Source: Elusimicrobiota bacterium (GTDB taxonomy: Bacteria > Elusimicrobiota > Elusimicrobia > F11). Taken from it: a stretch of 64,000 nucleotides of DNA. The DNA is taken from assembly GCA_046153645.1 (NCBI GenBank), contig JBJXGI010000103.1, positions 1-64,000 on the forward strand, written 5' to 3'. The position numbers and the translations under genes were made by a program. Shown piece after piece: positions 27,585 to 58,068 of this stretch. The notes below the pieces were generated by a model, which worked only from the letters and a program-made list of their open reading frames with translations, was not told the origin of the DNA and made no database searches. The first letter of the stretch is position 1; each line of letters starts with the position of its first letter.

Positions 27585-28049
27585 ATGATGACAAAAACTG
27601 AATCTCCACTCTCTATTGAACCAACACTGAATACATCTCGGTTTGGCCAAGTAAAAATAATCACTGACAATGTGCTTACTTTCCCTGAAGGGTTGGTGGG
27701 TTTTTCGGACTTTAAGCGATACATCTTGTTAGAACACGGAGACAGTCAAGGAATATTTTATTGGTTACAAAGTATGGATGATATGAGTTTGGCTTTCCCG
27801 GTTGTTAACCCTGCACCCTTTAACCAAAACTACAAGATTAAAATTTCAATACCAGATTTATCATCTATTGAATTAACAGATGAAAAAGACGCGCAAGTTT
27901 TAGCGATTGCCACCATTCCCATTGGGGACGAAAAAAAAATGTGGCTTAATTTACAAGCCCCTCTTATTATTAACAAAATGAAAAAATGTGGGAAACAGGT
28001 CATTTTGGATGGAACTCATCATCCCCTCCGGTTTCAGGTTACCTTTTAA
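27585..28049 (+). CDS. fliW: Flagellar assembly factor FliW
   Basis: TSRFG, FPEGLVGF, WLQS, NLQAPLIIN, GKQVIL. Confidence 0.95.
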   Translation: MMTKTESPLSIEPTLNTSRFGQVKIITDNVLTFPEGLVGFSDFKRYILLEHGDSQGIFYWLQSMDDMSLAFPVVNPAPFNQNYKIKISIPDLSSIELTDEKDAQVLAIATIPIGDEKKMWLNLQAPLIINKMKKCGKQVILDGTHHPLRFQVTF

Positions 28050-28285
28050 TGCTTTTATTAACCCGACGTCGTCGTCAAAGTATTGTCATTGGCGATGATA
28101 TTGAAATTACTGTTTTAAAAATTGAGAAATCTCAAGTACATATAGGAATTAAAGCCCCTAAAACACTTCCCATTTTTCGTCAAGAAATTTATCAAGTTTT
28201 AAAATTAGAGAATCAAGCCTCAGCCAATAGTTCTCCAACCTCAATTCAAAAAGCCATTCAATTCTTTCGAAAAAAACCGCTGTAA
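28049..28285 (+). CDS. csrA: Translational regulator CsrA
   Basis: MLLLTRR...IVIGDDIEITVL...IGIKAPK...FRQEIY with C-terminal extension. Confidence 0.95.
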   Translation: MLLLTRRRRQSIVIGDDIEITVLKIEKSQVHIGIKAPKTLPIFRQEIYQVLKLENQASANSSPTSIQKAIQFFRKKPL

Positions 28286-42331: not shown

Positions 42332-42363
42332 AGGTTTTGTTTTGGCTTTTTACCTCAATAATC

Positions 42364-42391
42364 TTATCGGTTGTAGATTGATTTCCCTTGA
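42364..42391 (-). promoter_or_regulatory. sigma28-type promoter of the ATPase-REC/FIST operon
   Basis: TCAAG-N15-ACCGATAA. Confidence 0.7.
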
Positions 42392-42500
42392 GAGGTTTTT
42401 TATGAAAGGGTCTTGAAATTGCTTGGGTATTCTGCGAATATCAATAACAATACAATCAATACAATTAAATCATACATATCAAGGGCTTCTTTTTTTGAGT

Positions 42501-42516
42501 TCGCATGAAATTTGCT
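42501..42516 (+). promoter_or_regulatory. Variant sigma54-like site (CG instead of GG at -24)
   Basis: TCGCATGAAATTTGCT upstream of the basal-body operon. Confidence 0.4.
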
Positions 42517-42578
42517 GAAAGAGAAGTTTGGAAACAAGTGAAGTAAAAAGATACCAAGGTCGTTCCCGAGAGGTATGT

Positions 42579-42956
42579 ATGGAAGATAAAAATAAAGTTA
42601 TTAAAGGAATAACAGGAATTATTCTGGATATATTAGCTGATGAGAAAAGTTGCATTCTTTCGGCTAACTGGCCGAAGTTGGATATCTTGATTCGGCGAAA
42701 GTCAAAATTATTGATGAAGCTAGAAAATATCGGCTTTGAGCATTTAAATGATTTATATGTCTTTGACCCCAGAGTTGTGGAAATTAAGGCTGTCATTCAG
42801 CAAATAGTCAATGCTGAAGATGAAAACGCAACCCTTTTAAAGGTTCAAATGTTAGAGATTAAAAACCAATTAGCGCATGTGAAGGATGTACTGAAAACCG
42901 CCATTTATGGATCCGTTGATGATAAATCAACGGCCATTTTACGTCAAAGCTACTAG
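42579..42956 (+). CDS. FliT/FlgN-like helical protein
   Basis: GAGG RBS; NWPKLDILIRRKSKLL...IQQIVNAEDENATLL...AIYG. Confidence 0.55.
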   Translation: MEDKNKVIKGITGIILDILADEKSCILSANWPKLDILIRRKSKLLMKLENIGFEHLNDLYVFDPRVVEIKAVIQQIVNAEDENATLLKVQMLEIKNQLAHVKDVLKTAIYGSVDDKSTAILRQSY

Positions 42957-42980
42957 TTTTAATTAAACAAGGAGTTTATC

Positions 42981-44204
42981 GTGGAGAAAGAGAAAGTATT
43001 AGTTGTTGATCAAGATGAAGAAATTAAAAAAACCATTCGACGTCTTTTAGATAAAACTCGTTATCAAATTTTTACCGCCGCCGAACAAGAAGAAGCATTG
43101 TCCTTGGTCAAACGTCGTCTTCCAAAATTAATCATCATGGATTTACATACTCCGAGAATTAGAGGAGTTGAACTTATTCAAACCATGAAAGATGTTCATA
43201 GAGATGTAAGAACCATTGTTTTCGCTGGACGTTCGAGCGATGAATCCGGTGCGTTGGCATCAGAACTAGGAGTTGATGGTTGTTTGGTTAAACCAGTTAA
43301 TATCCAGAAATTATCTTCATTACTCAATCAATTATTAAATGATTCAAACTCAACGGGGATTCACGGTTCAAGCGCCGATCATTTTTTAAGGCCCATTATT
43401 GGAGAATCTCCAAAATTGGCGGAAGTGATGAATCTTGTGAAAAAAGTGGCGGCCAGTTCAGCTACGGTATTACTTCAAGGAGCCAGTGGAACTGGAAAAG
43501 AATCCGTTGCCCGAGCTATTCATTATTATTCGCCAAGAAGAAGTAACCCTTTTCTTACTGTTAATTGCGCGGCATTGCCTGATGGCCTTTTGGAGAGTGA
43601 ATTATTCGGTGTTTGCCAAGGAGCCTATACGGGCGCTTTTGCTAACCGCCCGGGGAAAATGCAATTGGCTGATGGAGGATCGTTAATACTAGATGAAATT
43701 AGTGAAATGCCTTTGTCGCTTCAAGCAAAATTATTAAGAGCCATTCAGGAAAAAGAAGTAACTCCTTTGGGAGGAGGGTATCCCCTCAAAGTCAATGTGC
43801 GTTTTGTGGCAGTTACTAACCAAGACTTAGCTAAAAAAGTCCGAGAGGGAAAATTTCGGGAAGACCTGTTTTTTCGATTGAACGTTGTTCCTATTAATTT
43901 GCCGGCATTAAAAGAACGAAGAAGTGATGTTCGTCTTTTGGTTGATCACTTTGTTAAGAAGTTTGGCGCCGCCAATGGAAAACCGGTCATGAAAGTTGAC
44001 GATGAAATGATACGAATTCTTGAAGATTACGACTGGCCTGGCAATATTCGTGAATTGGAAAATTTAGTTGAGAGGCTTATTATCTTAAGTGAAAAAGATC
44101 GTTTAACAATAGAAGATTTACCTTTTTCAATGACAGAAAAAGTAAATACTTTTCCAAAATTGACGACAGCACTCCCAATTGTTCAAACCGATGTGATGAA
44201 TTGA
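42981..44204 (+). CDS. sigma54-dependent activator (REC-AAA+), no C-terminal HTH, FlgR-like
   Basis: IIMD receiver; GASGTGKE, ELFG...GAYTGA, LDEISEM, WPGNIRELEN; ends ~25 aa after EDLP. Confidence 0.9.
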   Translation: MEKEKVLVVDQDEEIKKTIRRLLDKTRYQIFTAAEQEEALSLVKRRLPKLIIMDLHTPRIRGVELIQTMKDVHRDVRTIVFAGRSSDESGALASELGVDGCLVKPVNIQKLSSLLNQLLNDSNSTGIHGSSADHFLRPIIGESPKLAEVMNLVKKVAASSATVLLQGASGTGKESVARAIHYYSPRRSNPFLTVNCAALPDGLLESELFGVCQGAYTGAFANRPGKMQLADGGSLILDEISEMPLSLQAKLLRAIQEKEVTPLGGGYPLKVNVRFVAVTNQDLAKKVREGKFREDLFFRLNVVPINLPALKERRSDVRLLVDHFVKKFGAANGKPVMKVDDEMIRILEDYDWPGNIRELENLVERLIILSEKDRLTIEDLPFSMTEKVNTFPKLTTALPIVQTDVMN

Positions 44205-44208
44205 GAAT

Positions 44209-44571
44209 ATGAGCGACTCAATAAAAAACATAGCGGGTTTAGGAATAGAGCAGCACCTGGCTTTAACTTGGGCCAATCAAAGATCTATTGCCAATAACAT
44301 TGCCAATGGCAATACTGCTAACTTTCAGGCAAAACGGATGGAATTAATTTCCAAAGATCAAGACTATCAACTGATATTAAATCAGTCTGATTCCAAGCAT
44401 TTAACTCTTCATGTTGAAGAAAATTCAATTCTCAAGGAAGTTCCTGTTAAAGACTTTAGTTTGGATTCTGAAATGGGAGAAATGACGAAGAATAATTTGT
44501 TTTATCAAACTTTACTTGAAACTGTTGTTCGAAGAAATCAAATGGCAAGGTCAGTTATTGAAGGCCGATAG
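44209..44571 (+). CDS. flgB: Rod protein FlgB
   Basis: IANNIANGNT; SLDSEMGEMTKNNLFYQ. Confidence 0.9.
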   Translation: MSDSIKNIAGLGIEQHLALTWANQRSIANNIANGNTANFQAKRMELISKDQDYQLILNQSDSKHLTLHVEENSILKEVPVKDFSLDSEMGEMTKNNLFYQTLLETVVRRNQMARSVIEGR

Positions 44572-44582
44572 GGTAAAAATAT

Positions 44583-45008
44583 ATGGACCAATTTAAAAAT
44601 CTTGATGTCAGCGCTTCCGGAATACGGGCCAACCGAGAATGGATGGAAGTCATCTCAAGTAATATAGCCAACTCTAAAACAACAAAGACACCAGACGGGG
44701 GACCCTATAAAGGAAAAATCGTTAGTTTTGCCGAAACTTTGAACACAGTTAATCAACAGAATCCTAACGTTTCTAAGGGCGCAGGGGTCAAAGTGGCTTC
44801 AGTCACTCCAGATGAATCTCCTTTTATTTCACTGTATTATCCTTCTCATCCCGATGCCAATAAAGAAGGGTATGTGCTTTTCCCAAATGTAAACCCCATG
44901 CAAGAAATGGCCAATATGGTCATGGCGACCCGTTCTTATGAAGCCAATGTAAGTGCCTTCAGCACAAGCAAAAATATGTATTTGAAAGCGTTGGAAATTG
45001 GGCGATAA
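44583..45008 (+). CDS. flgC: Rod protein FlgC
   Basis: SSNIANS; YPSHPDANKEGYVLFPNVN; RSYEAN. Confidence 0.96.
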   Translation: MDQFKNLDVSASGIRANREWMEVISSNIANSKTTKTPDGGPYKGKIVSFAETLNTVNQQNPNVSKGAGVKVASVTPDESPFISLYYPSHPDANKEGYVLFPNVNPMQEMANMVMATRSYEANVSAFSTSKNMYLKALEIGR

Positions 45009-45025
45009 AAATGAGGATTTTTTAA

Positions 45026-45328
45026 GTGGAACCGATTCATATTTCTCCAAAAGTCACCGAAGCTGGGGTTCCCAATTTAAAACCAGTTGATAACTCCTCT
45101 TCCAATCAAATTTCTTTTAATCATTTATTTTCTGAGATTATTGACCAAACCAATAACAATATTACCGATGCGGACAAAACAGTTAAAGATTTCGTTCAGG
45201 GTAAGATTGATAATCCACATGAAGTGATGATTCGCTTAGAAGAAGCCCATTTAGCTTTACAATTCACTGTTCAAATGAGGAATAAAGTCGTTGAAGCTTA
45301 TCAAGAGTTGATGCGAATGCAGCTGTAG
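45026..45328 (+). CDS. fliE: Hook-basal body protein FliE
   Basis: HEVMI...MRNKVVEAYQELMRMQ. Confidence 0.95.
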   Translation: MEPIHISPKVTEAGVPNLKPVDNSSSNQISFNHLFSEIIDQTNNNITDADKTVKDFVQGKIDNPHEVMIRLEEAHLALQFTVQMRNKVVEAYQELMRMQL

Positions 45329-45381
45329 TGGCTGGACCTGAGAGCGAATCTTTCAAAAGAAACGCTTGACGTAGGAAGCCA
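45329..45381 (+). promoter_or_regulatory. Structured leader motif upstream of fliF
   Basis: TGGCT-GGA-CCT...AGG-A-AGCCA; same architecture as 53540-53565. Confidence 0.55.
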
Positions 45382-45432
45382 ATGTTTCCAGATGATGAAA
45401 GGAAACCTTCCCGATAAGAGGGAGAACGAACA

Positions 45433-47022
45433 GTGGATTTTTTCGCACAGTTAAAGCAGTATTTTGACAAGCTATCGCTTGGACAAAAATTAATGACCGT
45501 TGGGGTTTTTATTAGTGTCTCAGCGGCTGTTTTTTTACTTTCGTATGTTTTAAAACAAGATGGTTACACTGTCTTGTTTGCCCGTCTTTCCCCTGAAGAC
45601 GCTTCTCAAATTGTTGAGCAGTTGAAGAATGAGAATATCCCTTATCGCCTGAGCGATTCTGGTCGCACTGTTAATGTTCCTACCGCTCAAGTTTATGACC
45701 TTCGTCTCAAAATGTCTGGGGCTGGTTTACCAAAAGGAGGGCATTCCGGTTTAGAGTTGTTTGATAAAGGCAGTGTCGGAATGACTGACTTTACTCAACA
45801 AGTTAATTATCAAAGAGCGATTCAAGGGGAATTGAGTCGAACGATTAGTGAATTGCAAAATATTCAACACGCCAGAGTTCATATTACTTTTCCTGATGAG
45901 TCCTCTTTTCTAGAGGAAGAAAAAGCCGCTTCAGCTTCCGTCGTTTTAACTCTTCAACCAGGCGCTGTTTTAGATCAAAAACAAATACAAGGTATTGTGA
46001 ATTTGGTTTCTGGCGCTGTGAAAGGATTAAAACCGGAAAATGTCACTTTAGTTGATACTTATGGGAATTTATTAACCAAAAGTGGAGATGATCAATCTCT
46101 CTTTACCGGGGCCGATAATTCACTGAACTTGCGAAAAACCGTTGAAAATTATTTGGAAGGAAAGGCACTTTCCCTTTTGGAAAAAGTTTTAGGGCCAGGA
46201 AAATCTGTGGTTAAAGTAACAGCCATATTAAACAATCAACGCATTCATGAACAAACAGAAAGCTACGATCCCAATGGCACAGTTCGAAGTGAACAAGTTT
46301 CAAAAGAAGCGGCGGGAACTTCGCTCAAAAATTACGAAGTGGGAAAAACCGTCCGTGAAGTGGTGGGAACTGCTGGGAATATTGAAAAACTTTATATTTC
46401 CGTTGTGATTGATGGAATCGTTAAAGTCGATGATGAAAATAAAAGTAATACAACGGTTATTCCACGAACAGAAGAAGAATTAAACAACTATAAACAATTG
46501 GTCATGCAGGCCGTCGGTTTTAGTGAAGAGCGTGAAGATCAAATTGATATTAAATCCATTCCATTCGATCGTGAGCATAAAGACAATATTTCCAAACAAA
46601 TGGAAGAACAAGAGAAAGCAGTTGCAAAAACAAAATCGCAAGAAAAAATAATGTCTTTGGCGGGAAAAGGAATTATTTCTCTTTCAATGATCGTGATTGT
46701 TTTCATGACGTTAAAAACCATGAAGAAGTCAGTATCAGAGCAAAAGTCATCAATTCCTGCTTCCTCGGTTCCGCAACTAGGAAATGTTCCTGTTTCTGCA
46801 CCAGCGTTGGCAGGATCTCGTGATGTCTCTATCCCGGTTTCAGCATCGACGCCCTCAATGCAAATGGAAAGTTCTAGGCAAGAGCCTTTGGCTTTGGAAG
46901 CGCCTGTACAAGAGCAAAGAATCCCTGTATCAGCGGAATTGGGCATTGAAATTTTGAAAGCGGCAAAAGAAAACCCGGAAGAAGTAGCTCGCACTATGCA
47001 GCGAGCTTGGATAAAAAAATAA
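45433..47022 (+). CDS. fliF: MS-ring protein FliF
   Basis: GLELFD...TDFTQQVNYQRAIQGELSRTI; ASASVVL; AVGFSEEREDQI. Confidence 0.96.
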   Translation: MDFFAQLKQYFDKLSLGQKLMTVGVFISVSAAVFLLSYVLKQDGYTVLFARLSPEDASQIVEQLKNENIPYRLSDSGRTVNVPTAQVYDLRLKMSGAGLPKGGHSGLELFDKGSVGMTDFTQQVNYQRAIQGELSRTISELQNIQHARVHITFPDESSFLEEEKAASASVVLTLQPGAVLDQKQIQGIVNLVSGAVKGLKPENVTLVDTYGNLLTKSGDDQSLFTGADNSLNLRKTVENYLEGKALSLLEKVLGPGKSVVKVTAILNNQRIHEQTESYDPNGTVRSEQVSKEAAGTSLKNYEVGKTVREVVGTAGNIEKLYISVVIDGIVKVDDENKSNTTVIPRTEEELNNYKQLVMQAVGFSEEREDQIDIKSIPFDREHKDNISKQMEEQEKAVAKTKSQEKIMSLAGKGIISLSMIVIVFMTLKTMKKSVSEQKSSIPASSVPQLGNVPVSAPALAGSRDVSIPVSASTPSMQMESSRQEPLALEAPVQEQRIPVSAELGIEILKAAKENPEEVARTMQRAWIKK

Positions 47023-47034
47023 GAGAGGTCAGTT

Positions 47035-48063
47035 ATGGTAGAGAATAATTATTACAAAGCAGCAGTTTTTTTGAGCAATCTTCCTGATGAACAATGCGTT
47101 GAAATATTGAGAAGTTTTGAAGAAGATGATGTTGAGAAAATTTGCCAAGAAATGCTTTCTTTAGCTGAAGTGAATGAAGAAACCAAAGCGGGAATCATTA
47201 AAGAATTTCAAGAGACGATGAAGGGGAATAATTCTCCGATGAAAGCGGGGGCAGAGTATGTTCAAGGGATTTTGGCCAGGGTTTATGGGGTTCGCCGCTC
47301 TGAATCGATGTTGAGTCACATGAAAGAACATTCAGAATCAAAAGTAGATTTGGATACGCTCATAGGAGAGATAGGGACTGCTTTTGCTGTTGAAGAAATA
47401 AAAGAAGAACATCCTCAGGTGGTGGCGGCTATTTTAACTTCTATTTCTTATCAAAAAGCATCTACCGTTGTCGCCGCTTTACCAGAAGATATGCAGTGCG
47501 AAGTATTTAGAGCCATGGGCCTTTCAAAACCAATGCCAGCTGATTTGGCTAATAAAATTAAACAAGGCCTCATTCAAAAACTACTGAAAAGAAAAAATAG
47601 TGGGACGTCTTTTAAAAAAGAAGGAATTCAAGGGTCCGCTGAAATATTGAGTTTATTGCCTTCTGAAAAGTCTCGAAAAATTATTGAGTCTATTAAGAGT
47701 AAAGATCAAGATTTGGGAATTTCTATTGAGAGCGCTATTTTTTCTATAGATGATCTTGTGAAATTAGAAGATCGTGACGTTCAAAAAATTCTGGCCAAAG
47801 CCGACCAAAACGCGATGAAATTATCACTTCGATTATGCGCAGAAGAAACCAAAGAAAAAGTATTTAAGAATATGTCAGAGCGCGCGGCAGGAATGTTAAG
47901 AGATGATATTTCAGTGATGGCCCCACAAAAAAGAGACGTTATCATTGAGGCACAACAAAAATTAATCGACATTATTCGGAAGTTAGATGAGGCCGGAGAA
48001 ATTAAGATTCCAAGACCACAACAAGCCAATAGTAGCCAGCCCGCGGAATCTACTTTGGTGTAA
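47035..48063 (+). CDS. fliG: Motor switch protein FliG
   Basis: KAAVFL, EHPQ, NMSERAAGML, AQQKLI. Confidence 0.93.
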   Translation: MVENNYYKAAVFLSNLPDEQCVEILRSFEEDDVEKICQEMLSLAEVNEETKAGIIKEFQETMKGNNSPMKAGAEYVQGILARVYGVRRSESMLSHMKEHSESKVDLDTLIGEIGTAFAVEEIKEEHPQVVAAILTSISYQKASTVVAALPEDMQCEVFRAMGLSKPMPADLANKIKQGLIQKLLKRKNSGTSFKKEGIQGSAEILSLLPSEKSRKIIESIKSKDQDLGISIESAIFSIDDLVKLEDRDVQKILAKADQNAMKLSLRLCAEETKEKVFKNMSERAAGMLRDDISVMAPQKRDVIIEAQQKLIDIIRKLDEAGEIKIPRPQQANSSQPAESTLV

Positions 48064-48065
48064 AT

Positions 48066-48377
48066 GTGAGTTTAGATATGAATATAAAAAAAGAAGAAGA
48101 ATTAACCGGTCGGATCATGAAAAAGGTTCAAATTATGGAGGTTCCTTATGTTTTTGGAGAGAAGGAACAACAAAAGTGTTTATGTTCTCCCCACTCTTTA
48201 GAATCGTTTAAACAACTTGAAGAGAAAATTAAAACGCTTGAATTAAAAATTTATGACCTTGAACACAGTCGTTCCATAACAATCCATAAAACCAAAGAAA
48301 AATTTTCACCGGAGCTCATCCGAAAAATAAAACCGTTGATCAAAAGACAGAGAAGAAAAGCTTTGGAGTGGAGATAG
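48066..48377 (+). CDS. Small protein resembling the N-terminus of the adjacent FliH
   Basis: GRIMKKVQIMEVPYVFG versus ARIVKKTEITSDPYKVG; followed by a coiled coil. Confidence 0.5.
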   Translation: MSLDMNIKKEEELTGRIMKKVQIMEVPYVFGEKEQQKCLCSPHSLESFKQLEEKIKTLELKIYDLEHSRSITIHKTKEKFSPELIRKIKPLIKRQRRKALEWR

Positions 48378-49006
48378 ATTTTGTGTTTGCTCGAATTGTC
48401 AAAAAAACTGAAATTACTTCAGATCCATATAAAGTGGGGCATGTTGAAGTCAAAAAAAAAGGACTTCTTTTACAGGTTCTAGAAAAGCATCGTCCAAATG
48501 AAAATCCCCATGAATATGTTAAAGCCATGGAAGAAAAAATTATTGATTTAGGTTTGAGATATCTGGAAACAAAAGCCAGTCAAGCCATTGAGTTTGAAAA
48601 AAATCAAATGATCATTCAGTTACAAGAACAAATGGAAAGTGCTTTAGATGAAATGAATGAGGGTTTGGTTGATCTGGTTATGGATATAGCTGAAAAATTT
48701 TGCCGAAAAAAAGCATCAGAAGATAAATCAATTATTCAGGCATGGGTCAAAGAAGCGTTGTCTCGTTTGGGTCAAGAAAAATCAGTGACAATGCGATTAA
48801 ATCCTTCTGAGGCCGAAATTATTCAAACCATGAAACAAGAAATTCTTGAGTCCCGAGAAGGATTGAAAGAATTAATAATTCAGTTTGATCCTGAAATGGA
48901 ACAAGGAGGGGTGGTTGTGACGGGTGAAACGATGGTTGTTGATTCAAGTGTCAAAACGCGCCTCAAAGAAATCAGGCACAATTTAAAAGGTCAGCATGAA
49001 AGTTAA
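48368..49006 (+). CDS. fliH: Export ATPase regulator FliH
   Basis: LVDLVMDIAEK, MRLNPSE, DPEMEQGGVVV; precedes fliI. Confidence 0.85.
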   Translation: MEIDFVFARIVKKTEITSDPYKVGHVEVKKKGLLLQVLEKHRPNENPHEYVKAMEEKIIDLGLRYLETKASQAIEFEKNQMIIQLQEQMESALDEMNEGLVDLVMDIAEKFCRKKASEDKSIIQAWVKEALSRLGQEKSVTMRLNPSEAEIIQTMKQEILESREGLKELIIQFDPEMEQGGVVVTGETMVVDSSVKTRLKEIRHNLKGQHES

Positions 49007-50315
49007 TTTAGAAAAGTTAAGAACACAATTACAAAAAGTTGACCCTGTTCGGTCTTTTGGTCGAGTCAAACGTGTTATTGGTGGAATGATTGAGGGTAAA
49101 GGATTGAATTTGTCTATCGGAGATCTTTGTGAGATACACTCACAAAGTGAAGATCGATTTATTCTAGCCGAAGCCGTTGGCTTTAGAGACGATAATATTT
49201 TTCTCATGCCTTTAGGAGAATTACGTGGAATTAGTCCTGGTTGCTTATTTGAAAAATCTAAGGGAATGGCCAAAGTCTCTGTTGGCCCACAACTATTGGG
49301 TCGTGTCCTCAATGAATTCGGTCAGCCTATCGATAATAAAGGTCCCCTTGTCTGCGATGAGCGTCGCCCCTTTTATAGATTTTCATCCAATCCGCTAAAA
49401 CGGATTCCCATTCGAGAGCCACTTTTGACAGGTGTTCGAGCTATCGATGGTGTTCTTACTTGTGGAAAGGGGCAACGTTTAGGAATTTTTGCGGGGAGCG
49501 GGGTTGGAAAAAGTGTTTTGATGGGAATGTTAGCGAGGAATACATCTGCTGATGTGAATGTGATTGCCATGATTGGAGAAAGAGGGCGAGAAATTCGGGA
49601 ATTTATTGAAAACAATTTAAAAGAAGAAGGCCTTAAAAGATCGGTCATTGTCGCGGTTCCTTCTGATCGGCCTCCGATGGCGCGTATTTATGCGGCATTG
49701 GCCGCTACTTCCATTTCGGAGTATTTCTGTGAACAGGGAAAAGATGTCATGTTAATGATGGATTCTTCCACCCGTGTTGCGATGGCCTTAAGAGAAGTGG
49801 GACTGGGAATGGGAGAAGCACCCACGTCGAGGGGATACACCCCATCTGTGTTTACGTTTTTGCCAAAACTATTGGAACGCTCAGGAAATTTTGAAACAGG
49901 CAGCATCACCGCTTTTTATACTGTTCTTGTAGAAGGAGATGATATGGACGAGCCAGTTGCTGATACCATGCGTTCTATTCTTGATGGTCATATCGTGTTA
50001 TCAAGAAAAATCGCTTCGCAGAATCATTTTCCTGCCATTGATATTTTACAGAGTATTAGTCGTTGTATGACGGACGTGACATCGATAGCTCACAGAAAAT
50101 CAGCCAATCGTTTAAAAGAGTTGTTGGCCATTTATCATGACACAGAAGACTTAATTAAAGTTGGGGCTTATGTGAAGGGCAACCAAAGTAAAGTTGATGA
50201 AGCGATTTCAAAAATCGACCGGATCAACTCTTTTTTAATGCAAGGGATTGAAGAAAAAATGGAATTTAAAAATTGCTTACAACAAATGGCGGACCTTTCA
50301 AATGAAAAAATTTAA
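48996..50315 (+). CDS. fliI: Flagellar export ATPase FliI
   Basis: GIFAGSGVGKS, IGERGRE, GSITAFYTVLVEGDD. Confidence 0.97.
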   Translation: MKVNLEKLRTQLQKVDPVRSFGRVKRVIGGMIEGKGLNLSIGDLCEIHSQSEDRFILAEAVGFRDDNIFLMPLGELRGISPGCLFEKSKGMAKVSVGPQLLGRVLNEFGQPIDNKGPLVCDERRPFYRFSSNPLKRIPIREPLLTGVRAIDGVLTCGKGQRLGIFAGSGVGKSVLMGMLARNTSADVNVIAMIGERGREIREFIENNLKEEGLKRSVIVAVPSDRPPMARIYAALAATSISEYFCEQGKDVMLMMDSSTRVAMALREVGLGMGEAPTSRGYTPSVFTFLPKLLERSGNFETGSITAFYTVLVEGDDMDEPVADTMRSILDGHIVLSRKIASQNHFPAIDILQSISRCMTDVTSIAHRKSANRLKELLAIYHDTEDLIKVGAYVKGNQSKVDEAISKIDRINSFLMQGIEEKMEFKNCLQQMADLSNEKI

Positions 50316-50766
50316 CTTTCGTCTTGATCGATTTCTCAAGATTAAACTGGCATTGGAAAAAAATCAATCCTTTGCTATCCAACGCATAGAAAATCATGTG
50401 AATCAAAAGAAACAAGAACAGGTAACACTTGAGAAAATATTAGAGGATTATCAAAGAATTGAACAATCTCAATCTAACAGCGATATTAACCTTCCTAAAA
50501 TTGTCGCCATGATGGCTTATATGGAATTAATAGACACGCGTGTTTCTTCAAAAAAAGAAGAAATAAATAAACTTCAAGCAGGTCTTATTTCTGAAAGAAA
50601 AAAATTACTTTATTTAATGCGTGAGAGAAGAGCTTTAGAAAGTTTAAAAGATAATTTTTTCCTCACCTATAAAAAAGAAATTTCCAAAGAATTTCAAAAA
50701 AGACTGGATGATTCCTGTAAAAACAAATCACAGGAAGAAGAGCAGAGGTTAAAAACCAATGGATAG
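50302..50766 (+). CDS. fliJ: Export chaperone FliJ
   Basis: MKKFNFRLDRFLKIK; ERRALESLK; EFQKRLDD. Confidence 0.88.
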   Translation: MKKFNFRLDRFLKIKLALEKNQSFAIQRIENHVNQKKQEQVTLEKILEDYQRIEQSQSNSDINLPKIVAMMAYMELIDTRVSSKKEEINKLQAGLISERKKLLYLMRERRALESLKDNFFLTYKKEISKEFQKRLDDSCKNKSQEEEQRLKTNG

Positions 50767-51490
50767 TTTAAAGAGTTTAGCGCCGAGGGTTCTTTTGTGG
50801 ATTTTATGTGTTTGTGTTCCTGCTTCTGTGGGTCTAAGGTTATTTGATCCTCCGAAAATGCAGGTCATCATTCCAACGGTCAATCCTCTATTGGAAGTCA
50901 ACCTTGAAGAAGAAATTCATTCAGAAGAAAGTGAACCAGAAACAATGACTCCTGGAAAAGCGCTTAGCATGAAAATTGCTGAAGAGAAAAGTGTAGCGGA
51001 ACAGTTAAAAGATAAGGGGTTATCCCCTGAGATTGATAAGTTGGTGGCCTATCTTTCTCAATCGCACGCGGAACAAATGGTGACACTAAAAAAGTATTTA
51101 GAGCAAGCGGATATTTTAAGGAAACAATTAGACGCACAAAATAAAAAATGGGAAGAAAATAAAGGAAAGATTGAAATGATCTTGGCAGTTCAAAAACAAC
51201 ATGACGAGCAGTTTAAAACACTTCTCCAAAAAATTAATGAAACCGATTCCAAAGTGGGAGAAAAAGTGAAAGGTGATCAAGCTAATATGGATAAGATCAC
51301 AAAAATGTATTCAACCATGCCCGCAGAAAATGTGGCCAAAATAACTGAAGATATGGACATGGATTCTGTTGTCGAAATATTTTCTCAAATTAAAGACAAG
51401 GATTTGGTCAAAATTATTCAGGCACTCCCGCCTAAGCGAGCTGCATCGATCACTTTAAAAATGGCGGACTTTTCAAGGAAAAAGAAATGA
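50759..51490 (+). CDS. MotE/FlbB/YlxF-like protein (TM, coiled coil, MgtE_N-like repeat)
   Basis: KMYSTMPAENVAKI...IIQALPPKRAASIT; after fliJ. Confidence 0.8.
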   Translation: MDSLKSLAPRVLLWILCVCVPASVGLRLFDPPKMQVIIPTVNPLLEVNLEEEIHSEESEPETMTPGKALSMKIAEEKSVAEQLKDKGLSPEIDKLVAYLSQSHAEQMVTLKKYLEQADILRKQLDAQNKKWEENKGKIEMILAVQKQHDEQFKTLLQKINETDSKVGEKVKGDQANMDKITKMYSTMPAENVAKITEDMDMDSVVEIFSQIKDKDLVKIIQALPPKRAASITLKMADFSRKKK

Positions 51491-52839
51491 AATTAGAAAA
51501 TTCAGAAATCATTTCAATATCACCACAGATTTTGGCACCCTCTAAAAATTTTGATAATTCCTTAAATAAAAATGAGAAGTTTGAAACATCTTTTAAAACT
51601 GTTGTTGAAAAACAAGAAATGAAACCTTCCAATGCTCAAGCCGAAACATCAGAAAGACCTCGTGGACTTAAAAATTCACCCAGAGCGGAGAAAGATAATG
51701 AATCTCATGAGCCCGCGACTGATGATCAATTAACCGTTTCAATAATTCCAGTGATTACTCCGATGATTATTCCAGTCCAAGAGGTTTCAGTTGATCTTAT
51801 TGTGGCGGCGACTCTGCTTTTAGAAATAACCCCCGTTCAGAATGTCATTGGTGAAGAGAAAGACGCCCTAAATTTAAATACTTCAACACTCCTCATGATG
51901 AACATCAATAATGAAGCTGAGACTGTTCATTTGCAACAAAAAGTAGCTGAAGGTAATCAAGTCGGTCTTGCGCTTGTTTCTGAACAGAAAAATCCGGTGA
52001 TGGAGAGTATAAATAAATTATCCGCTAAGACAGATTCTGAAAAAGTTTCTTTAGAAACAACGAATGTGGATGAGATTGTGATTCCACAAAAAACCTCGTC
52101 TAGCCAAGCGGTTTTGGATCAGTTAAGAATCTTTGAACCTGAAACCGAAAATAGCTTGCCCAGTAATAAAAAAATAAAAAACGAAGAACAAGGTGAAATC
52201 GAACCTTCAGTTGAGTTTCAAAATGTCGACATGAAAGTTGAGGGGGCCACTTTAAGAGAGTTTAATAAAACTGATTTTGATTTTTCATTTCTGAATCAAA
52301 ATAAAAATACTTCTTCTGAAATTTCACATTTTCTCTTTCAAACTCCCAATCCCATAAAAGAGAATTCGGTTTTTTCGTCCCCTGCTTCAGGTGAAGTTAT
52401 GATTAAAAGTCATCTGCCAACTGAACAGAAAGTTGTAGATCAAATTATTCAAAAGTTTTCTGTTATTCAACAAGCAGGACAATCTCAAGCGCAAATTGAG
52501 TTAGAACCCAAAGAACTAGGAAAGTTAAAGATGGTTTTAACAATGGATCAAGACTCCGTGATCGTAAAATTCAATGTCGAAAGTCAAAGAGTTAAAGAAA
52601 TTGTTCAGGCTCATTTACCGCAATTGAAAGATTCTTTGTTAGAGCGGGGGTTTACCGTTGAAAGATTTGATGTCGCGATGATGGCCAGTGGTCACAACAT
52701 GGATCACTCAGGTGATAAACATCAAGGGCCAAAGATGCCAATCCCCTACCGAAAGTTTGATGTTAATGAATTTGTTAACAATGAAATGATGAGCGGAGTT
52801 GTTAATTTTGAAAATCGCAGAGTAAATGTTTTTGCTTAA
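51487..52839 (+). CDS. fliK: Hook-length control protein FliK
   Basis: Low-complexity N-terminus; IELEPKELGKL...LPQLKDSLLERG. Confidence 0.92.
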   Translation: MKLENSEIISISPQILAPSKNFDNSLNKNEKFETSFKTVVEKQEMKPSNAQAETSERPRGLKNSPRAEKDNESHEPATDDQLTVSIIPVITPMIIPVQEVSVDLIVAATLLLEITPVQNVIGEEKDALNLNTSTLLMMNINNEAETVHLQQKVAEGNQVGLALVSEQKNPVMESINKLSAKTDSEKVSLETTNVDEIVIPQKTSSSQAVLDQLRIFEPETENSLPSNKKIKNEEQGEIEPSVEFQNVDMKVEGATLREFNKTDFDFSFLNQNKNTSSEISHFLFQTPNPIKENSVFSSPASGEVMIKSHLPTEQKVVDQIIQKFSVIQQAGQSQAQIELEPKELGKLKMVLTMDQDSVIVKFNVESQRVKEIVQAHLPQLKDSLLERGFTVERFDVAMMASGHNMDHSGDKHQGPKMPIPYRKFDVNEFVNNEMMSGVVNFENRRVNVFA

Positions 52840-52857
52840 TTTTAATAGGAGGAAAAT

Positions 52858-53250
52858 ATGATTGATTCACTTAATGGGTTTACACCCTCAATACCAGATG
52901 CTCCCAACCCAGGCAGAGAGCTTGATAAGGATGCTTTTTTAAAATTGTTGACTGCCCAAATTCAACATCAAGATCCTCTCAACCCCACTGATCAAAATGA
53001 AATGTTTGGCACATTGTCGCAAATGACTCAAGTTGAGCAGATCACCAATTTGAATAGCAATGTTTCGAGCCTTCTTCATACCAATCAGTTGAATTTAATT
53101 GGGAAAGAAGTAGCTGCTTTAGATGATGAAGGAAAAGCCATTCAAGGAATCGTTCAAGAGATTGCCTTTGTGGAAGGAGATTCTTTTATGTTGATTGATG
53201 GGAAAACTGTTTCAATCAAAAACCTCTTAAGTGTGACAATTCCAAAATGA
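52858..53250 (+). CDS. flgD: Hook-capping protein FlgD
   Basis: LDKDAFLKLLTAQIQHQDPLNP. Confidence 0.95.
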   Translation: MIDSLNGFTPSIPDAPNPGRELDKDAFLKLLTAQIQHQDPLNPTDQNEMFGTLSQMTQVEQITNLNSNVSSLLHTNQLNLIGKEVAALDDEGKAIQGIVQEIAFVEGDSFMLIDGKTVSIKNLLSVTIPK

Positions 53251-53531
53251 TAGACGGAATTTTACCATCATTAAGTGGTGCCATACGATTTACACAGCAC
53301 GCGCAACAAAGATTAAAGTCTGATCAAGTAAATCTAACAGTATCCGAAATAAATCGCATTCAAGGAGGAATGGATAAAGCGGCAGAAAAAGGAGCCAAAG
53401 AATCACTTTTGTTAATGGAAGATAAAGCTTTTATCGTCAATGCCAAAGATCGTGTAGTGATTACGTCTATTAATCGAGAGCGTCTGAGAGAAAATGTTTT
53501 TACGAATATTGACAGTGCAGTAATAATTTAA
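53247..53531 (+). CDS. Flagellar operon protein (TIGR02530-like)
   Basis: IRFTQHAQQRL...KAAEKGAKESLLL...NVFTNIDSAVI, between flgD and flgE. Confidence 0.9.
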   Translation: MIDGILPSLSGAIRFTQHAQQRLKSDQVNLTVSEINRIQGGMDKAAEKGAKESLLLMEDKAFIVNAKDRVVITSINRERLRENVFTNIDSAVII

Positions 53532-53539
53532 AAAATAAA

Positions 53540-53565
53540 AGGGCCGGACCCATCTGGGAGGCCCT
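53540..53565 (+). promoter_or_regulatory. Structured leader motif upstream of flgE
   Basis: AGGGCC-GGA-CCC-ATCT-GGG-A-GGCCCT. Confidence 0.6.
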
Positions 53566-53586
53566 CCAATACAGGAGGAAGTTCAT

Positions 53587-55611
53587 ATGATGCCAGCACT
53601 ATTTTCAGGAGTTTCAGGTCTTAAGAACCATCAATTCCGTTTAAATGTTATCGGTAATAATCTGTCAAACGTTAATACCATCGGTTATAAATACAACCGG
53701 GTTACGTTTAGTGATCTTGTATATCAAAATGTCCGTGACGCTTCCGCTGCGCAAAATGGTTTGGGTGGAACCAATCCTGTTCAAATGGGCTTGGGAGCGT
53801 TGGTTAATACTGTTGACATGATTAATTCTCAGGGGAATTTAGAGTCAACTGGCAAATCAACTGATTTGGCCATTCAGGGAAATGGTTATTTTGTTTTAGG
53901 TGATGATTCCAATCGTTATTACACCCGCGCTGGAAACATGGCCATTGGTGTTGACGGCACACTTTTTAATCCTTCCAATGGTTTAAAATTTATGGGTTGG
54001 AAAGCTTCTAATGGCGCCATTGATACTTCTAATCAAGTTGAAGATGTGAGTATCCCCATCGGGCAAGCGTTAGCCGCTCAACCTACTTCAAATCTTGTGA
54101 TGGCAGGGAATTTAGATGCGACAGGAACTATTTCTCTTGGAACAATCACTCAAACCCCTGTTTTATTGGCAAAAGCAACGGGTAGTGATTTAGCCACACT
54201 TGCTAAAAATGGTCGTGGGATAAGTCTTGGTTTAAACGTTGGCGATGTTATTAACATTACAGGAAATGTGGGAGGAACTGCGATAACAGGTCAAACATTA
54301 ACCGTGACAGCTTTAACGAGTGTTGATGATATTGCCGCCGCTTTACAAGCAGCTCTTCAAAGTGTTCCAGATGGTGACGCAAGTGAAACCGCCACAGTTC
54401 AGGCCGATGGTTCAATTCAAGTGGTATCGGATGGATCCAATGACATTACAGCACTTCGAATGGGAATTTCCGGGAATAGTGTTTTAAATGGCGCTTTTGC
54501 CTTTCCTTCAACAATTGTTGGCGGTGGCAGCACTGGAAATTCTGATACTTTAATGGCAGCAGCTGATGGGACCGATGCACTTGTTGATTTGTTTGATGCG
54601 ACAGGAAACAGTATTGGTTTGGTTGCAGGGGATGATGTCACTCTTATTAGCGCCATTTCAAAAGGTTCATTGATAACCAATGTCAATATTCTCAGTGATA
54701 TTACCAACGGAACAACCTATGAAACCTACAAAGATGCATTGAAATCAGCGCTCTTCACTAGTTTCCCCTTATTTGGGGAGGATATGACGGTTGAATCGGA
54801 TGGATCTTTAAAATTAACGGGTGCCGTTGGAGCTAGCAATGCTGTGACAGGGCTTGAACTGGGTGCCGGCCCAACTCCTGGGGGCGATGTCCGAGATACG
54901 TTCGGAGCTTCTCAAGTATTTGTTCAATCTCAAGCCGCTGTTGACGCCACTTCATTTCGTACAACAGGACAGGTTTTTGACTCTTTAGGAAACACTCATA
55001 CCGTAAATATTACTTTCACTAAAACAGTTAACAATACTTGGGATTGGTCCGCGAGTACGGGGGGAGCGACAGTTGGTTCAGGGGTATTAAATTTCTCAAG
55101 TACTGGAGAAATTTTAAACTCAACTGGTGCGCTAACGCTCAATTTGAATAACGGAGCAACAACCCCGTTGGTTATTTCGATTGATTTTGGTACCGCTACA
55201 CAATTCGGTGGAAACTCTTCTCTTGTTGTGACAAGTCAAAATGGAAACGAATCAGCAACTTTAAATAATTTCTCTGTTGGTCAAGGGGGAGATATTACCG
55301 GGATATTTTCTAATGGAAAAAATATTTTATTGGGGCAATTATCCGTCGCTACTTTCCAAAATCCAACCGGTCTTATTCGAGAAGGAAGAAATTTACTTTC
55401 TGAATCACCCAACTCAGGAGTGGCGTTTGTTGGAGTCCCAGGGGTGGGTGGGAGAGGAACATTTGTCGCTGGAACATTAGAAATGTCTAACGTGGACGTG
55501 GCGCGTGAATTTACTGACATGATCATCACTCAGCGTGGGTTTCAAGCCAATGCGAGAGTGATTTCAACGTCGAATGAGATGTTAGAAGAGCTGGTCAACC
55601 TGAAAAGGTAA
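53587..55611 (+). CDS. flgE: Hook protein FlgE (long form)
   Basis: LFSGVSGL...GNNLSNVNTIGYK; FDSLGNTH; LEMSNVD...QRGFQANARVI. Confidence 0.96.
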   Translation: MMPALFSGVSGLKNHQFRLNVIGNNLSNVNTIGYKYNRVTFSDLVYQNVRDASAAQNGLGGTNPVQMGLGALVNTVDMINSQGNLESTGKSTDLAIQGNGYFVLGDDSNRYYTRAGNMAIGVDGTLFNPSNGLKFMGWKASNGAIDTSNQVEDVSIPIGQALAAQPTSNLVMAGNLDATGTISLGTITQTPVLLAKATGSDLATLAKNGRGISLGLNVGDVINITGNVGGTAITGQTLTVTALTSVDDIAAALQAALQSVPDGDASETATVQADGSIQVVSDGSNDITALRMGISGNSVLNGAFAFPSTIVGGGSTGNSDTLMAAADGTDALVDLFDATGNSIGLVAGDDVTLISAISKGSLITNVNILSDITNGTTYETYKDALKSALFTSFPLFGEDMTVESDGSLKLTGAVGASNAVTGLELGAGPTPGGDVRDTFGASQVFVQSQAAVDATSFRTTGQVFDSLGNTHTVNITFTKTVNNTWDWSASTGGATVGSGVLNFSSTGEILNSTGALTLNLNNGATTPLVISIDFGTATQFGGNSSLVVTSQNGNESATLNNFSVGQGGDITGIFSNGKNILLGQLSVATFQNPTGLIREGRNLLSESPNSGVAFVGVPGVGGRGTFVAGTLEMSNVDVAREFTDMIITQRGFQANARVISTSNEMLEELVNLKR

Positions 55612-55617
55612 TAGTCC

Positions 55618-55650
55618 ACCCAAAGGTGGGGAATTCCCCCACCTTCGGGT
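55618..55650 (+). terminator. Strong hairpin after flgE
   Basis: ACCC-A-AAGGTGGGG...CCCCACCTT-C-GGGT, no clear U tract. Confidence 0.55.
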
Positions 55651-55682
55651 TGATTAAATTTAAATAAGGAAAAGAAACTTTT

Positions 55683-56264
55683 ATGTCGTTACCAGAAACA
55701 ATAAAAAAAGTTGGAGTAGAAATTGTGGTTTTTTCCCTCTCAGGAGTTATTAGTGTCGTGGGGTCTTATGTGTTGATTAAACGCGTGTTGCCTCAGGCTT
55801 GGTTTCAGGGTGAAACTGTTGCCGTGGTGGCGGCTCCAGCAGACGCACATGCCGCAGAAGGCCAGAAGGCTGCCGAGAGCCATAAAGAGGGAACAAAACC
55901 AAAAGAAGATCATGGAAAAGAAAAACCTAAAGGACATGGCGAAGGAAAAGAAGAGAAGGAGGAAGGCGTTAATGTCCCATTGAAATCTGTCATTGTTAAT
56001 TTGGCAGATACCAATGTTCGTCGGTTTGGAAAAGTTTCTTTGTCTTTACAAGTGAAAGATCCCAAAGTTGTGGAAGACTTGAAAAAAGTGGATCCGCAAA
56101 TATATGACACTTTGATTAAAGTGTTGAGCCATTTCAAATATGAAGAGATTAGCTCTCTCGATGGAAAAGAACTGTTCAAAGAAGAAGTGAAGAATAGAAT
56201 TAATGTCATTTTAAAAGATGATGTTGTTACAAGTGTATTTATCACCGAATTGATTGTGCAATAG
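55683..56264 (+). CDS. fliL: Basal-body-associated protein FliL
   Basis: N-terminal TM; IVNLAD; GKELFKEEV; VFITELIVQ. Confidence 0.92.
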   Translation: MSLPETIKKVGVEIVVFSLSGVISVVGSYVLIKRVLPQAWFQGETVAVVAAPADAHAAEGQKAAESHKEGTKPKEDHGKEKPKGHGEGKEEKEEGVNVPLKSVIVNLADTNVRRFGKVSLSLQVKDPKVVEDLKKVDPQIYDTLIKVLSHFKYEEISSLDGKELFKEEVKNRINVILKDDVVTSVFITELIVQ

Positions 56265-56275
56265 GGAAAATAGTT

Positions 56276-57151
56276 ATGGTCGCCACTTTTGATGCTCGTC
56301 AAACAATTCTCTCCAAAAAGAAAAAAGAATTTCTTAAAAAGATATATATCGAATTTTCTTCTGCTTTAGAAAAAACACTCTTGAGTTATATTTCACTTCC
56401 TATTCATGTCTCTATAAAGGACATTAATTATTTTTCATATGAAAATTATCAAAAAGGGACCGAGGGTTCATTTTTGTGGAATTTGTTTGCCATTGAGCCA
56501 GTGGGAACTTTAGGCTTATTAAAAATACAAAACAATTTGGTGTTGGTGGCTTTAGACCGCATTTTAGGTGGGCCGGGCAAATTAAGCGCGGAAAAAAAAG
56601 AACAACTTTCATTGATCGAATTAAAAATGTCTGAAGCCTTGGTTAATCAGATATTAAACCGGTTGAATGCGGTATTAGAAACCTATGGCGAATGTAGTTT
56701 TCATGCTCAAGCAATGGCACAAAATAACAAAGACTTAAAATTTCTTTCGGCGGATGACCCTGTGATTGTGGTGAGCTTTGAAACAAGTTTTGGAGAATTA
56801 CAAGGAAAAATGGACGTTTGTTTCCCGGTTACTTTTCTTGATCCTATTTTGGCCACCGTTGATAAACAAGATCAACAATCATTTGGGAATTTGAGCGACC
56901 CAAAAATTGCGCATATTGTTAAAGAAAAAATGGGTCCGTTGCTCGTCCCTGTCTGTGCTTATTTAGGTGAATTGAAACTTCCTCTAGAAGAGTTGTTGGC
57001 TCTAGAGCCGGGCCATGTGATTTGTTTGGGGCCTATTCACAAAGATTTGGTTGTAAAAGTGGCCAATGTTCCAGTTTTTTTAGGTTCTCCTGGTGTATCA
57101 AATGAGAATTTGGCTGTTCAAGTGCGCGTGGAAGTCCCATGCAAAAAGTAA
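56276..57151 (+). CDS. fliM: Switch protein FliM, N-terminally truncated
   Basis: DRILGGPG, LSLIE, MDVCFP, C-terminal SpoA domain; no LSQxEID segment. Confidence 0.88.
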   Translation: MVATFDARQTILSKKKKEFLKKIYIEFSSALEKTLLSYISLPIHVSIKDINYFSYENYQKGTEGSFLWNLFAIEPVGTLGLLKIQNNLVLVALDRILGGPGKLSAEKKEQLSLIELKMSEALVNQILNRLNAVLETYGECSFHAQAMAQNNKDLKFLSADDPVIVVSFETSFGELQGKMDVCFPVTFLDPILATVDKQDQQSFGNLSDPKIAHIVKEKMGPLLVPVCAYLGELKLPLEELLALEPGHVICLGPIHKDLVVKVANVPVFLGSPGVSNENLAVQVRVEVPCKK

Positions 57152-57163
57152 GGAGTAAGTTTT

Positions 57164-57556
57164 ATGTCCAATGACTTAACGCCTCCAGAAGAACAGGGGC
57201 AAAATGAAATGGTGGTTGGTCAACCATCAGGTATCGATAATATAACAACGGTTCAAAAAGCTGAGTTACCTCCTTTGGTTTCAAATCCCAAGGCGCCTGT
57301 TAATTTAAAAATTGCGCCACTTATGGATGTGAATTTAAATGTGAGTGTTTTGTTGGGGAAAACCATGATGACTTTGGGAGATCTTCTGAAACTGGGATCT
57401 GGATCTGTGATTGAACTAAGTCGTCCCACAGGAGAACCTGTTGACATTCTTGTGAATGATCGTTTTTTTGCCAGAGGAGAAATCGTGGTTGTTGAAGAAT
57501 CTTTTGGCGTAAGAATTTTAGAAGTGGCTGACAATCAGAGAGCGGAGGCAGCGTGA
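57164..57556 (+). CDS. fliN: Switch protein FliN
   Basis: LMDVNLNVSVLLG...GSVIEL...ARGEIVVVEESFGVRI; ends AEAA. Confidence 0.95.
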   Translation: MSNDLTPPEEQGQNEMVVGQPSGIDNITTVQKAELPPLVSNPKAPVNLKIAPLMDVNLNVSVLLGKTMMTLGDLLKLGSGSVIELSRPTGEPVDILVNDRFFARGEIVVVEESFGVRILEVADNQRAEAA

Positions 57557-58068
57557 GTAAACTTAAATCTGTAATAAAGATTTTCGTATTTTATTTTTTA
57601 TTTGGGATTTTACCAAACCCCGTTTTTTCTGTGACGGTTGATGAGCCTATTAATACTGAAATGCTTCTTGATAGCTTGGAATCCAATTCCACTGAAAAAC
57701 CAATGGCCCCAGAAACAAGTTTTTTCTCCATATTATTGAGAACAGGTTGCGCGCTTTTAATTGTTTTGGCTTTGGGTTGTGTCGCGATTAAAGTGATGAA
57801 AATGTTGCGGTTTTCACCCGCAGTGAAAACTTCTTCTATTCAAATTATTCAACGGTTACCCCTCTCGGGCAGGAAAGCTCTTTATGTTGTGAAAGTAGCA
57901 GAGAAAGCCTTGATCCTGGGAGTATCCGAACAAGCCATATCAAAAATTTGTTTTATGAATTTATCTGATTTCCCTGATACAGAAGCAATGGCATCTGCCC
58001 CTGCTGGAAGGTTCGGTGAAATGTTGGCTCAAAAAATGAGAAGTGTGATTGGGAAAAATGAAAATTAA
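57553..58068 (+). CDS. fliO: FliO/FliZ-family protein
   Basis: TM, then IQIIQRLPLSGRKALYVVKVAEKALILGVSE. Confidence 0.85.
   Translation: MSKLKSVIKIFVFYFLFGILPNPVFSVTVDEPINTEMLLDSLESNSTEKPMAPETSFFSILLRTGCALLIVLALGCVAIKVMKMLRFSPAVKTSSIQIIQRLPLSGRKALYVVKVAEKALILGVSEQAISKICFMNLSDFPDTEAMASAPAGRFGEMLAQKMRSVIGKNEN

Follow-up and report, generated by a model that had tools for sequence, protein, structure and literature searches.

The flagellar operon and its two leader hairpins

The window analysed here is a 64,000-nt stretch of the genome of an Elusimicrobiota bacterium (contig JBJXGI010000103.1), and it carries a flagellar operon on its forward (+) strand at 44209–56264; all window features described below lie on that strand. 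The operon runs flgB, flgC, fliE, fliF, fliG, fliH, fliI, fliJ, an open reading frame (ORF) with an MgtE_N domain, fliK, flgD, a gene of the family TIGR02530, flgE, and fliL. Two RNA hairpins lie within it, one in the leader of fliF, the gene for the MS-ring protein, and one in the leader of flgE, the gene for the hook protein, the latter directly downstream of the TIGR02530 gene. By sequence comparison, each hairpin represents a conserved cis-acting leader element found in the mRNAs of flagellar operons. The element has a conserved RNA structure and position, and it is associated with the TIGR02530 gene, whose 94-aa product (53247–53531), also known as Pfam Flagellar_put, is the candidate reader of the motif.

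The motif is complete in the fliF leader. Its first hairpin, H1 (45329–45381), reads UGGCU-GGA-CCU...AGG-A-AGCCA and consists of an outer stem UGGCU/AGCCA, a 5' bulge GGA, an inner stem CCU(G)/(C)AGG, and a 3' bulge A, with a self-folding apical insertion of 33 nt. H1 begins where fliE ends (45026–45328; TIGR00205, 90.2 bits), so that the UAG stop codon of fliE at 45326–45328 abuts it. A second hairpin, H2 (45384–45406), follows with the stem GUUUCC/GGAAAC and the loop AGAUGAUGAAA, which fits the consensus GAnnGAnnGA. Next comes a small hairpin (45408–45424), predicted from the minimum free energy (MFE) fold of this single sequence, in which the ribosome-binding site (RBS) GGGAG at 45420–45424 is paired with UUCCC; fliF itself starts with GTG at 45433 and extends to 47022 (TIGR00206, 309.5 bits). 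The flgE leader has H1 without H2 (53540–53565; AGGGCC-GGA-CCC-AUCU-GGG-A-GGCCCU), placed 9 nt past a TAA stop codon and 7 nt ahead of the RBS AGGAGGA (53573–53579). It is followed by flgE (53587–55611; 674 aa, identified by profile match). Upstream of this copy, the stop codon of the hook-cap gene flgD (52858–53250) overlaps the start of the TIGR02530 gene.

A first-pass annotation, made from the letters of this stretch, had described a GGA/A hairpin shared by the fliF and flgE leaders, with two compensatory changes between the copies and a position just upstream of both RBSs. The sequences are as described, and the two C-G to U-A exchanges are present, one at the last outer-stem pair and one at the third inner-stem pair. 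The position holds for flgE, but in the fliF leader H1 ends ~38 nt 5' of the RBS, with H2 and the RBS hairpin in between. The gene before the flgE copy, which the same annotation had assigned to TIGR02530, scores 94.7 bits against a cut-off of 83.2 (and 37.4 bits against 21.1 for PF12611), and the names fliE, fliF, flgD, and flgE were likewise confirmed.

Folding alone is unremarkable, with an MFE of -16.9 kcal/mol (z -2.6) for the fliF leader and -15.8 kcal/mol (z -1.7) for the flgE leader. The 10-mer GGCYGGACCY occurs four times on the two strands of the 2.6-Mb genome, and the occurrences that close a hairpin are the window's two alone. A covariance model built without the window (R1, described below) ranks the fliF and flgE leaders as its top two matches in the whole genome, at 27.1 bits (E 0.0014, with H2) and 22.3 bits (E 0.024), respectively. 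Neither hairpin appeared in a scan for intrinsic terminators, no U-run lies 3' of either, and terminator identity is ruled out for both because there is no U-tract.

Two further signals lie near the flgE copy. A promoter-like TTGACA-16-AAAAAT at 53509–53536 (10 of 12 matches, the best of a 16-kb scan) ends 4 nt before H1 and, if used, would start a transcript inside or at the hairpin. A weak H2-like hairpin (53228–53263; AAUUCC, loop AAAAUGAUAGAC, GGAAUU; 10.3 bits, E 0.11) lies across the flgD stop and the TIGR02530 start.

Conservation and covariation of the element

Just 3 of 40 relatives of the window's genome carry TIGR02530, and these have no hairpin in the flgE spacer, so a wider set of 80 TIGR02530 loci was taken from one-per-species genomes, with at most 59% protein identity to the window. 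The labels given by depositors to these loci are Bacillota, Actinomycetota, Armatimonadota, Bacteroidota/Ignavibacteria, Calditrichia, Fibrobacter, Eremiobacterota, Dormibacterota, Sericytochromatia, FCPU426, and Elusimicrobia. R1 is the covariance model made from a seed alignment of 39 of these leaders, from 39 organisms other than the window's, and it was run over a search space of 1.37 Mb on both strands at a cut-off of E < 0.05. In the nearest relatives of the window, an H1-like hairpin stands before fliF and none before flgE.

Across these loci H1 has two stems, outer and inner, set apart by a GGA bulge on the 5' side and by a single A (or G) on the 3' side. It is usually followed by H2, with the loop GAnnGAnnGA (also written YGAMYGAYNGA), and then by an RBS of the form GGAGGUC. 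The first-pass annotation's expectation that the motif would be conserved elsewhere holds: it was found in the TIGR02530–flgE spacer of 60 of the 80 loci, under more than ten depositor phylum labels, and 21 of these 60 lie outside the seed. All 63 matches below the cut-off are on the sense strand, comprising the 60 spacer matches, the window's two copies, and one other site in locus L007.

The covariation expected from the first two copies is also found in the larger set. Compensatory changes occur in 13 of the 15 pairs of the RNAalifold structure of the 39-leader seed, and G-U pairs are tolerated. In the alignment of 66 matches, which is fitted to the model and thus favours it, 96.1% of cells are paired, compared with 70.3% after shuffling, and the covariation score is 0.719, compared with 0.21 after shuffling (reached by 0 of 500 shuffles) and 0.06–0.12 with slid partners. 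Because MAFFT placed the 3' arms wrongly when H1 was aligned by itself, a descriptor independent of R1 was used in place of a covariance model of H1 alone; it calls for four outer pairs, then GGA, three inner pairs, an A or a G, and again four outer pairs. It matches 54 of the 80 TIGR02530–flgE spacers, while dinucleotide shuffles give 3.8 ± 2.0 matches with a maximum of 10. Loci that R1 missed, largely labelled Armatimonadota, have a wholly different inner stem and keep the GGA and the A. Overall, the stems vary freely, and the unpaired GGA, the A, and the GAnnGAnnGA loop are fixed.

Weak H1-like hairpins are also seen ~1.5–2 kb 5' of TIGR02530, possibly before fliK, in L007 (7889–7951, 22.5 bits) and, as matches to the descriptor only, in L080 (1981–2003) and L044 (8560–8581). 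In addition, the (AA)UGAC of the H2 loop is, by inspection, complementary to a GUCA(UU) 3' of the RBS in many loci, though not in all; pairing of the H2 loop with the first flgE codons was judged by eye and dropped as inconsistent.

Readings at the level of DNA (a sigma-54 or sigma-28 promoter, or a palindromic operator) were rejected by reasoning, because the loop that separates GG from GC has no fixed length, G-U pairs occur among the covarying stem pairs, and all matches are on the sense strand. The stop codons of TIGR02530 are depleted in UGA (8 of 58, against 321 of 955), and UAG enrichment is not significant; both results can be explained by pairing inside H1. No family in Rfam 15 fell on the motif, either in the window at 42000–58000 (E ≤ 10) or in eight loci, at least six of them motif-bearing (E ≤ 1). 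A literature search found no description of a flgE-leader RNA or of a function for the TIGR02530/PF12611 protein.

Association with the TIGR02530 gene

The gene flgE lies directly 3' of TIGR02530 in 82 of 84 loci, and the other two loci end at a contig edge. The first-pass annotation had suggested that motif and gene would co-occur, and they do so closely in both classes that were scored. Among 151 Bacilli genomes, 113 have FlgE/F/G, 69 have TIGR02530, and 61 have an R1 match; within the flagellated ones, the motif is present in 60 of the 69 with TIGR02530 and in 1 of the 44 without it. That sole motif-only genome (G065) is a false match inside long open frames in GC-rich DNA. Similarly, of 120 Clostridia genomes, 47 have FlgE/F/G, 41 have TIGR02530, and 38 have an R1 match, and the motif is found in 38 of 41 flagellated genomes with TIGR02530 and in 0 of 6 without. 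These counts are descriptive, as related genomes are not independent.

Nine Bacilli genomes have TIGR02530 and no R1 match. Two are likely misses of the filter: by eye, the motif is present in G063, where the bulge reads GGC and H2 is canonical, and G122 has a canonical H2 with a less clear, partly parsed H1 carrying GGU. The remaining seven fall in a divergent subfamily that scores under the cut-off. Of these, five have a remodelled leader in which one nested hairpin presents an H2-type loop, and G183 has a simple H2-type hairpin. Loci L102–L107 (genomes G075, G171, G144, G050, G114, and G130) carry divergent Bacilli TIGR02530 proteins that score 60–73 bits in ORFs of 183–220 aa, and in their leaders a GCC/GGC outer stem encloses a single hairpin with loops of the GGACCGACUGAA type.

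Some copies of the motif are found away from the gene. Genome G042, which has a single TIGR02530 gene, holds extra full copies (L090, L092, L093) before flgG and before two flgE paralogues after flgD, with no TIGR02530 gene between flgD and these paralogues. In G287 a second flgE is preceded by a copy, and the window's fliF copy is 8 kb from the TIGR02530 gene. Together, these copies point to a factor acting in trans. In the window's clade, three nearly invariant TIGR02530 residues are changed, and the flgE-leader motif is lost or reduced. Taken with the divergent Bacilli subfamily, this suggests at the level of sequence that the TIGR02530 protein and its leader RNA diverge together.

The TIGR02530 protein

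In 74 homologues, the residues H18, A19, K48, G49, T73, N83, F85, T86, I88, D89, and A91 are invariant, and S16, R22, R26, N68, and T70 are nearly so; in total, 11 residues are invariant and 13 nearly invariant across phyla. R26, N68, and T70 are replaced by D, D, and V in the window and its two closest relatives alone. An AlphaFold2 model of the protein (predicted local distance difference test 82.5) has the topology beta-alpha-alpha-beta-beta-beta, and when it was compared with 48,161 PDB representatives, the top 16 matches were RelE, ParE, HigB, YafQ, and YoeB toxins or their close kin. A profile search against PDB sequences returned nothing relevant for this protein.

At the sequence level, 52 of the 74 members touch the Pfam family DUF4258 (PF14076) at E ≤ 1, the best at 4.3e-4, and the window's own protein has no DUF4258 match at that threshold. 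An hhalign comparison with four DUF4258 proteins gave 80.9% probability over 17 columns, with the signature FSxHAxxRLxxRxI. Two reports (PMC11980606; bioRxiv 10.64898/2026.08.28.747851) place DUF4258 among the BECR-fold toxin families and record no function for it, and TIGR02530/Flagellar_put is entered as "function unknown" in a June 2026 survey of flagellar genes (PMC13277936). On the basis of the model, the TIGR02530 protein may adopt a RelE/ParE-like (BECR) fold, and it has His, Arg, and Lys residues that are invariant. The first-pass idea of an RNase-like or RNA-binding neighbour protein thus gains some support from the modelled fold and from the N-terminal signature shared with DUF4258.

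Other features of the operon

The window's FlgE, at 674 aa, is long, and the family profile matches both of its ends only, hence a large central insertion. Between fliJ and fliK, the 243-aa ORF at 50759–51490 has a C-terminal MgtE_N match (26.9 bits) as its only hit, with none in NCBIfam. At the flgE–fliL junction (55592–55640), a sub-threshold Rfam match to DUF3800-XI (23.6 bits against 37.8) is probably a mere hairpin after flgE.

A proposed control element with a candidate reader

We favour a reading in which the leader element is a post-transcriptional control element read by the TIGR02530 protein, by binding or by cleavage, and we give it a probability of about 0.5. The element would act at the RNA level on the cistron directly 3' of it, which is normally flgE and in the window would be fliF (full element) as well as flgE (H1), and the TIGR02530 protein is the probable reader of its neighbouring leader. 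If the protein binds, its position on the GGA/A internal loop or on the H2 loop could decide whether the RBS is free or paired. If it cleaves, it would cut the polycistronic RNA at the element, so that a hairpin protects the 5' end of the downstream cistron. In either case, the downstream structural gene would be expressed differently from its operon neighbours, and the element and TIGR02530 together probably set the amount of hook and ring protein that is made. We infer that the protein reads the RNA from the co-occurrence, the copies located in trans, the joint divergence, and the RNase-type fold; the contact itself, the direction of its effect, cleavage, and the effect on subunit stoichiometry that the first-pass annotation had envisaged are steps that we infer in turn.

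A bolder version of this reading is that TIGR02530 is a domesticated RelE/colicin-like endoribonuclease, with the GGA/A hairpin (and the GAnnGAnnGA loop) as its cognate site. The cut would then fall at or beside the upstream stop codon, 0–7 nt from H1 in most carriers. Each released cistron, that of the hook and in the window that of the MS ring as well, would carry a protective 5' hairpin and a remodelled RBS. We offer this version tentatively and think it unlikely.

Several observations weigh against a TIGR02530-read element. The fold matches have Z scores of 4.6–5.6 over 61–81 aligned residues, a range below 8 in which, by the tool's own caution, a match can be a common arrangement; Foldseek, run with a first and weaker model, found nothing significant. 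The similarity to DUF4258 covers the first 15–20 of 71 profile positions and reaches 12–16 bits against a gathering cut-off of 25. One member of the divergent Bacilli subfamily (G158) has a 34-nt spacer and no hairpin, and the window's closest relatives have TIGR02530 and no motif before flgE. Because the gene and the motif are adjacent, they may travel as a single cassette, gained or lost together, with no interaction between them. Finally, in leaders of the Bacillota type, the conservation of the GGA bulge could be accounted for with no protein involved, because the bulge together with the inner arm is complementary to GGAGGUC.

Alternative explanations

This last point leads to a protein-independent switch with translational coupling, in which the 5' arm of H1 (GGACCUC) has two possible partners, its own 3' arm and the RBS GGAGGUC. 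A ribosome terminating on the upstream ORF, the stop codon of which lies within or next to H1, would cover the H1 5' arm and free the RBS. Translation of flgE would thereby depend on that of the ORF before it, and TIGR02530 would matter only as the translated ORF. The form of the RBS speaks for such a switch: UC follows GGAGG in 25 of 46 motif-bearing flgE genes, compared with 9 of 412 other ORFs that have GGAGG ahead of them in these loci, where UG, the 16S-complementary form, is the commonest continuation, and GGAGGUC is complementary to the GGA bulge and inner 5' arm of H1. As for folding, the RBS is mostly paired in 35 of 47 leaders, and the MFE structure pairs it with the H1 5' arm in 16 of 47, with a median energy difference of 0 from the fold in which H1 is enforced. 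Spacing fits in 31 of 51 loci, where 0–7 nt separate the start of H1 from the first stop-codon base (0 in 12), and in the window, where the fliE stop abuts H1; it does not fit in the other 20, where H1 lies 11–93 nt away, or in the extra copies before flgG and a flgE paralogue, which are 57 and 38 nt past the upstream stop. The window copies lack the GGAGGUC form, with no UC after the RBS (AGGAGGAAG before flgE and GAGGGAGAA before fliF), and inner stems of the Armatimonadota type are not CC-rich and keep the GGA and the A nonetheless. The conserved H2 loop and the invariant and nearly invariant residues of the upstream ORF are left unexplained as well. On balance, we consider coupling without a protein reader unlikely.

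The first-pass annotation had named CsrA as another possible reader via GGA. On this account, the GGA of the H1 bulge, the inner-stem GG with the bulged A, and the GGA of the RBS would be CsrA sites, and the leader would correspond, for the hook gene, to the flagellin leaders that CsrA represses. The invariant core of H1 is GGA, GGA motifs are present in the window leaders, csrA is encoded within the window (28049–28246; TIGR00202, 78.9 bits), and 33 of 38 motif-bearing Clostridia have csrA. However, csrA tracks flagella rather than the motif, being present in 5 of 6 motif-less flagellated Clostridia, and it was not found in 5 of the 38 motif-bearing ones, although those genomes may be incomplete. 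As a control, Bacillus subtilis has csrA and flgE and lacks TIGR02530. CsrA sites typically sit in hairpin loops, whereas the GGA of H1 is in an internal loop between two stems, and the H2 loop is usually without GGA. Overall, csrA is a poorer predictor of the motif than TIGR02530, and we regard CsrA as a quite improbable reader.

A passive RNA element with no dedicated reader, which would stabilise or punctuate the polycistron as an exonuclease barrier, a general RNase site, or an internal 5' end, suits stable GC-rich hairpins directly 5' of high-copy structural genes and the promoter-like sequence 4 nt before the flgE H1, but we think it very unlikely, since fixed unpaired bases amid freely varying stems are not needed for a mere barrier, the tight link to one accessory gene is unexplained, and the hairpins, with no U-tract, are not terminators. 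The coupling, CsrA, and passive explanations are not mutually exclusive.

Comparison with known systems

The flagellin leaders controlled by CsrA and FliW, those of B. subtilis hag and its relatives, are among the closest known systems. Like the element described here, they are leaders of a flagellar structural gene with several GGA motifs, one of them in the RBS; they act after transcription to tie subunit synthesis to assembly, as the present element may do. The present element differs in its targets, which are flgE, fliF, or flgG rather than flagellin, in the placement of GGA in an internal loop, in its second hairpin with the GAnnGAnnGA loop, and in that its presence follows TIGR02530 and not csrA.

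Structured RNAs upstream of flagellar genes have been described before: Termite-flg (RF01729) and flg-Rhizobiales (RF01736) are candidate cis-regulatory structured RNAs 5' of flagellar genes (Weinberg et al. 2010; PMC2864571). Neither model gave a match in the window at 42000–58000 (E ≤ 10) or in the eight loci, at least six motif-bearing (E ≤ 1). Identity with Termite-flg was rejected, since its seed sequences are multi-stem RNAs of ~105 nt without the H1 or H2 signatures and look unrelated.

For the protein, the modelled beta-alpha-alpha-beta-beta-beta topology resembles the RelE/ParE superfamily, and the N-terminal H-A-x-x-R signature is common to TIGR02530 and DUF4258. Unlike DUF4258 and other BECR toxins, TIGR02530 falls under the Pfam cut-off for DUF4258, has no antitoxin-like partner, and is fixed between flgD and flgE across phyla. 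Phage T4 RegB is a small RelE-like RNase that cuts GGAG in the RBSs of early mRNAs. By analogy, it would be the nearest mechanistic precedent for a small protein acting on GGA(G) translation-initiation regions, and it is among the fold matches of the TIGR02530 model (2hx6), weakly, with Z 3.5. RegB differs in that there is no sequence relation between the two proteins and in that it inactivates phage mRNAs, whereas the element here lies in a cellular assembly operon and is defined by structure.

Significance for flagellar gene expression

The present analysis adds a full copy of the element upstream of fliF, counts that tie the motif to TIGR02530 rather than to csrA, the conserved GGAGGUC site, a remodelled leader in the divergent subfamily, and a RelE-like fold modelled for the TIGR02530 protein. 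In Bacillota and many further phyla, flagellar operons take the form of long polycistrons whose products are needed in very different amounts, and outside the CsrA–flagellin case we know of little on how flagellar subunit amounts are set after transcription. In this context, the leader element is a well-supported RNA family absent from Rfam. If the endoribonuclease version were true, it would amount to a dedicated, operon-internal mRNA processing that sets flagellar subunit ratios, old enough to be common to loci with more than ten phylum labels. A hook-gene leader tied to one orphan protein gives TIGR02530/Flagellar_put a testable function, and the pair may exemplify the recruitment of a toxin-type RNase fold for housekeeping gene control.

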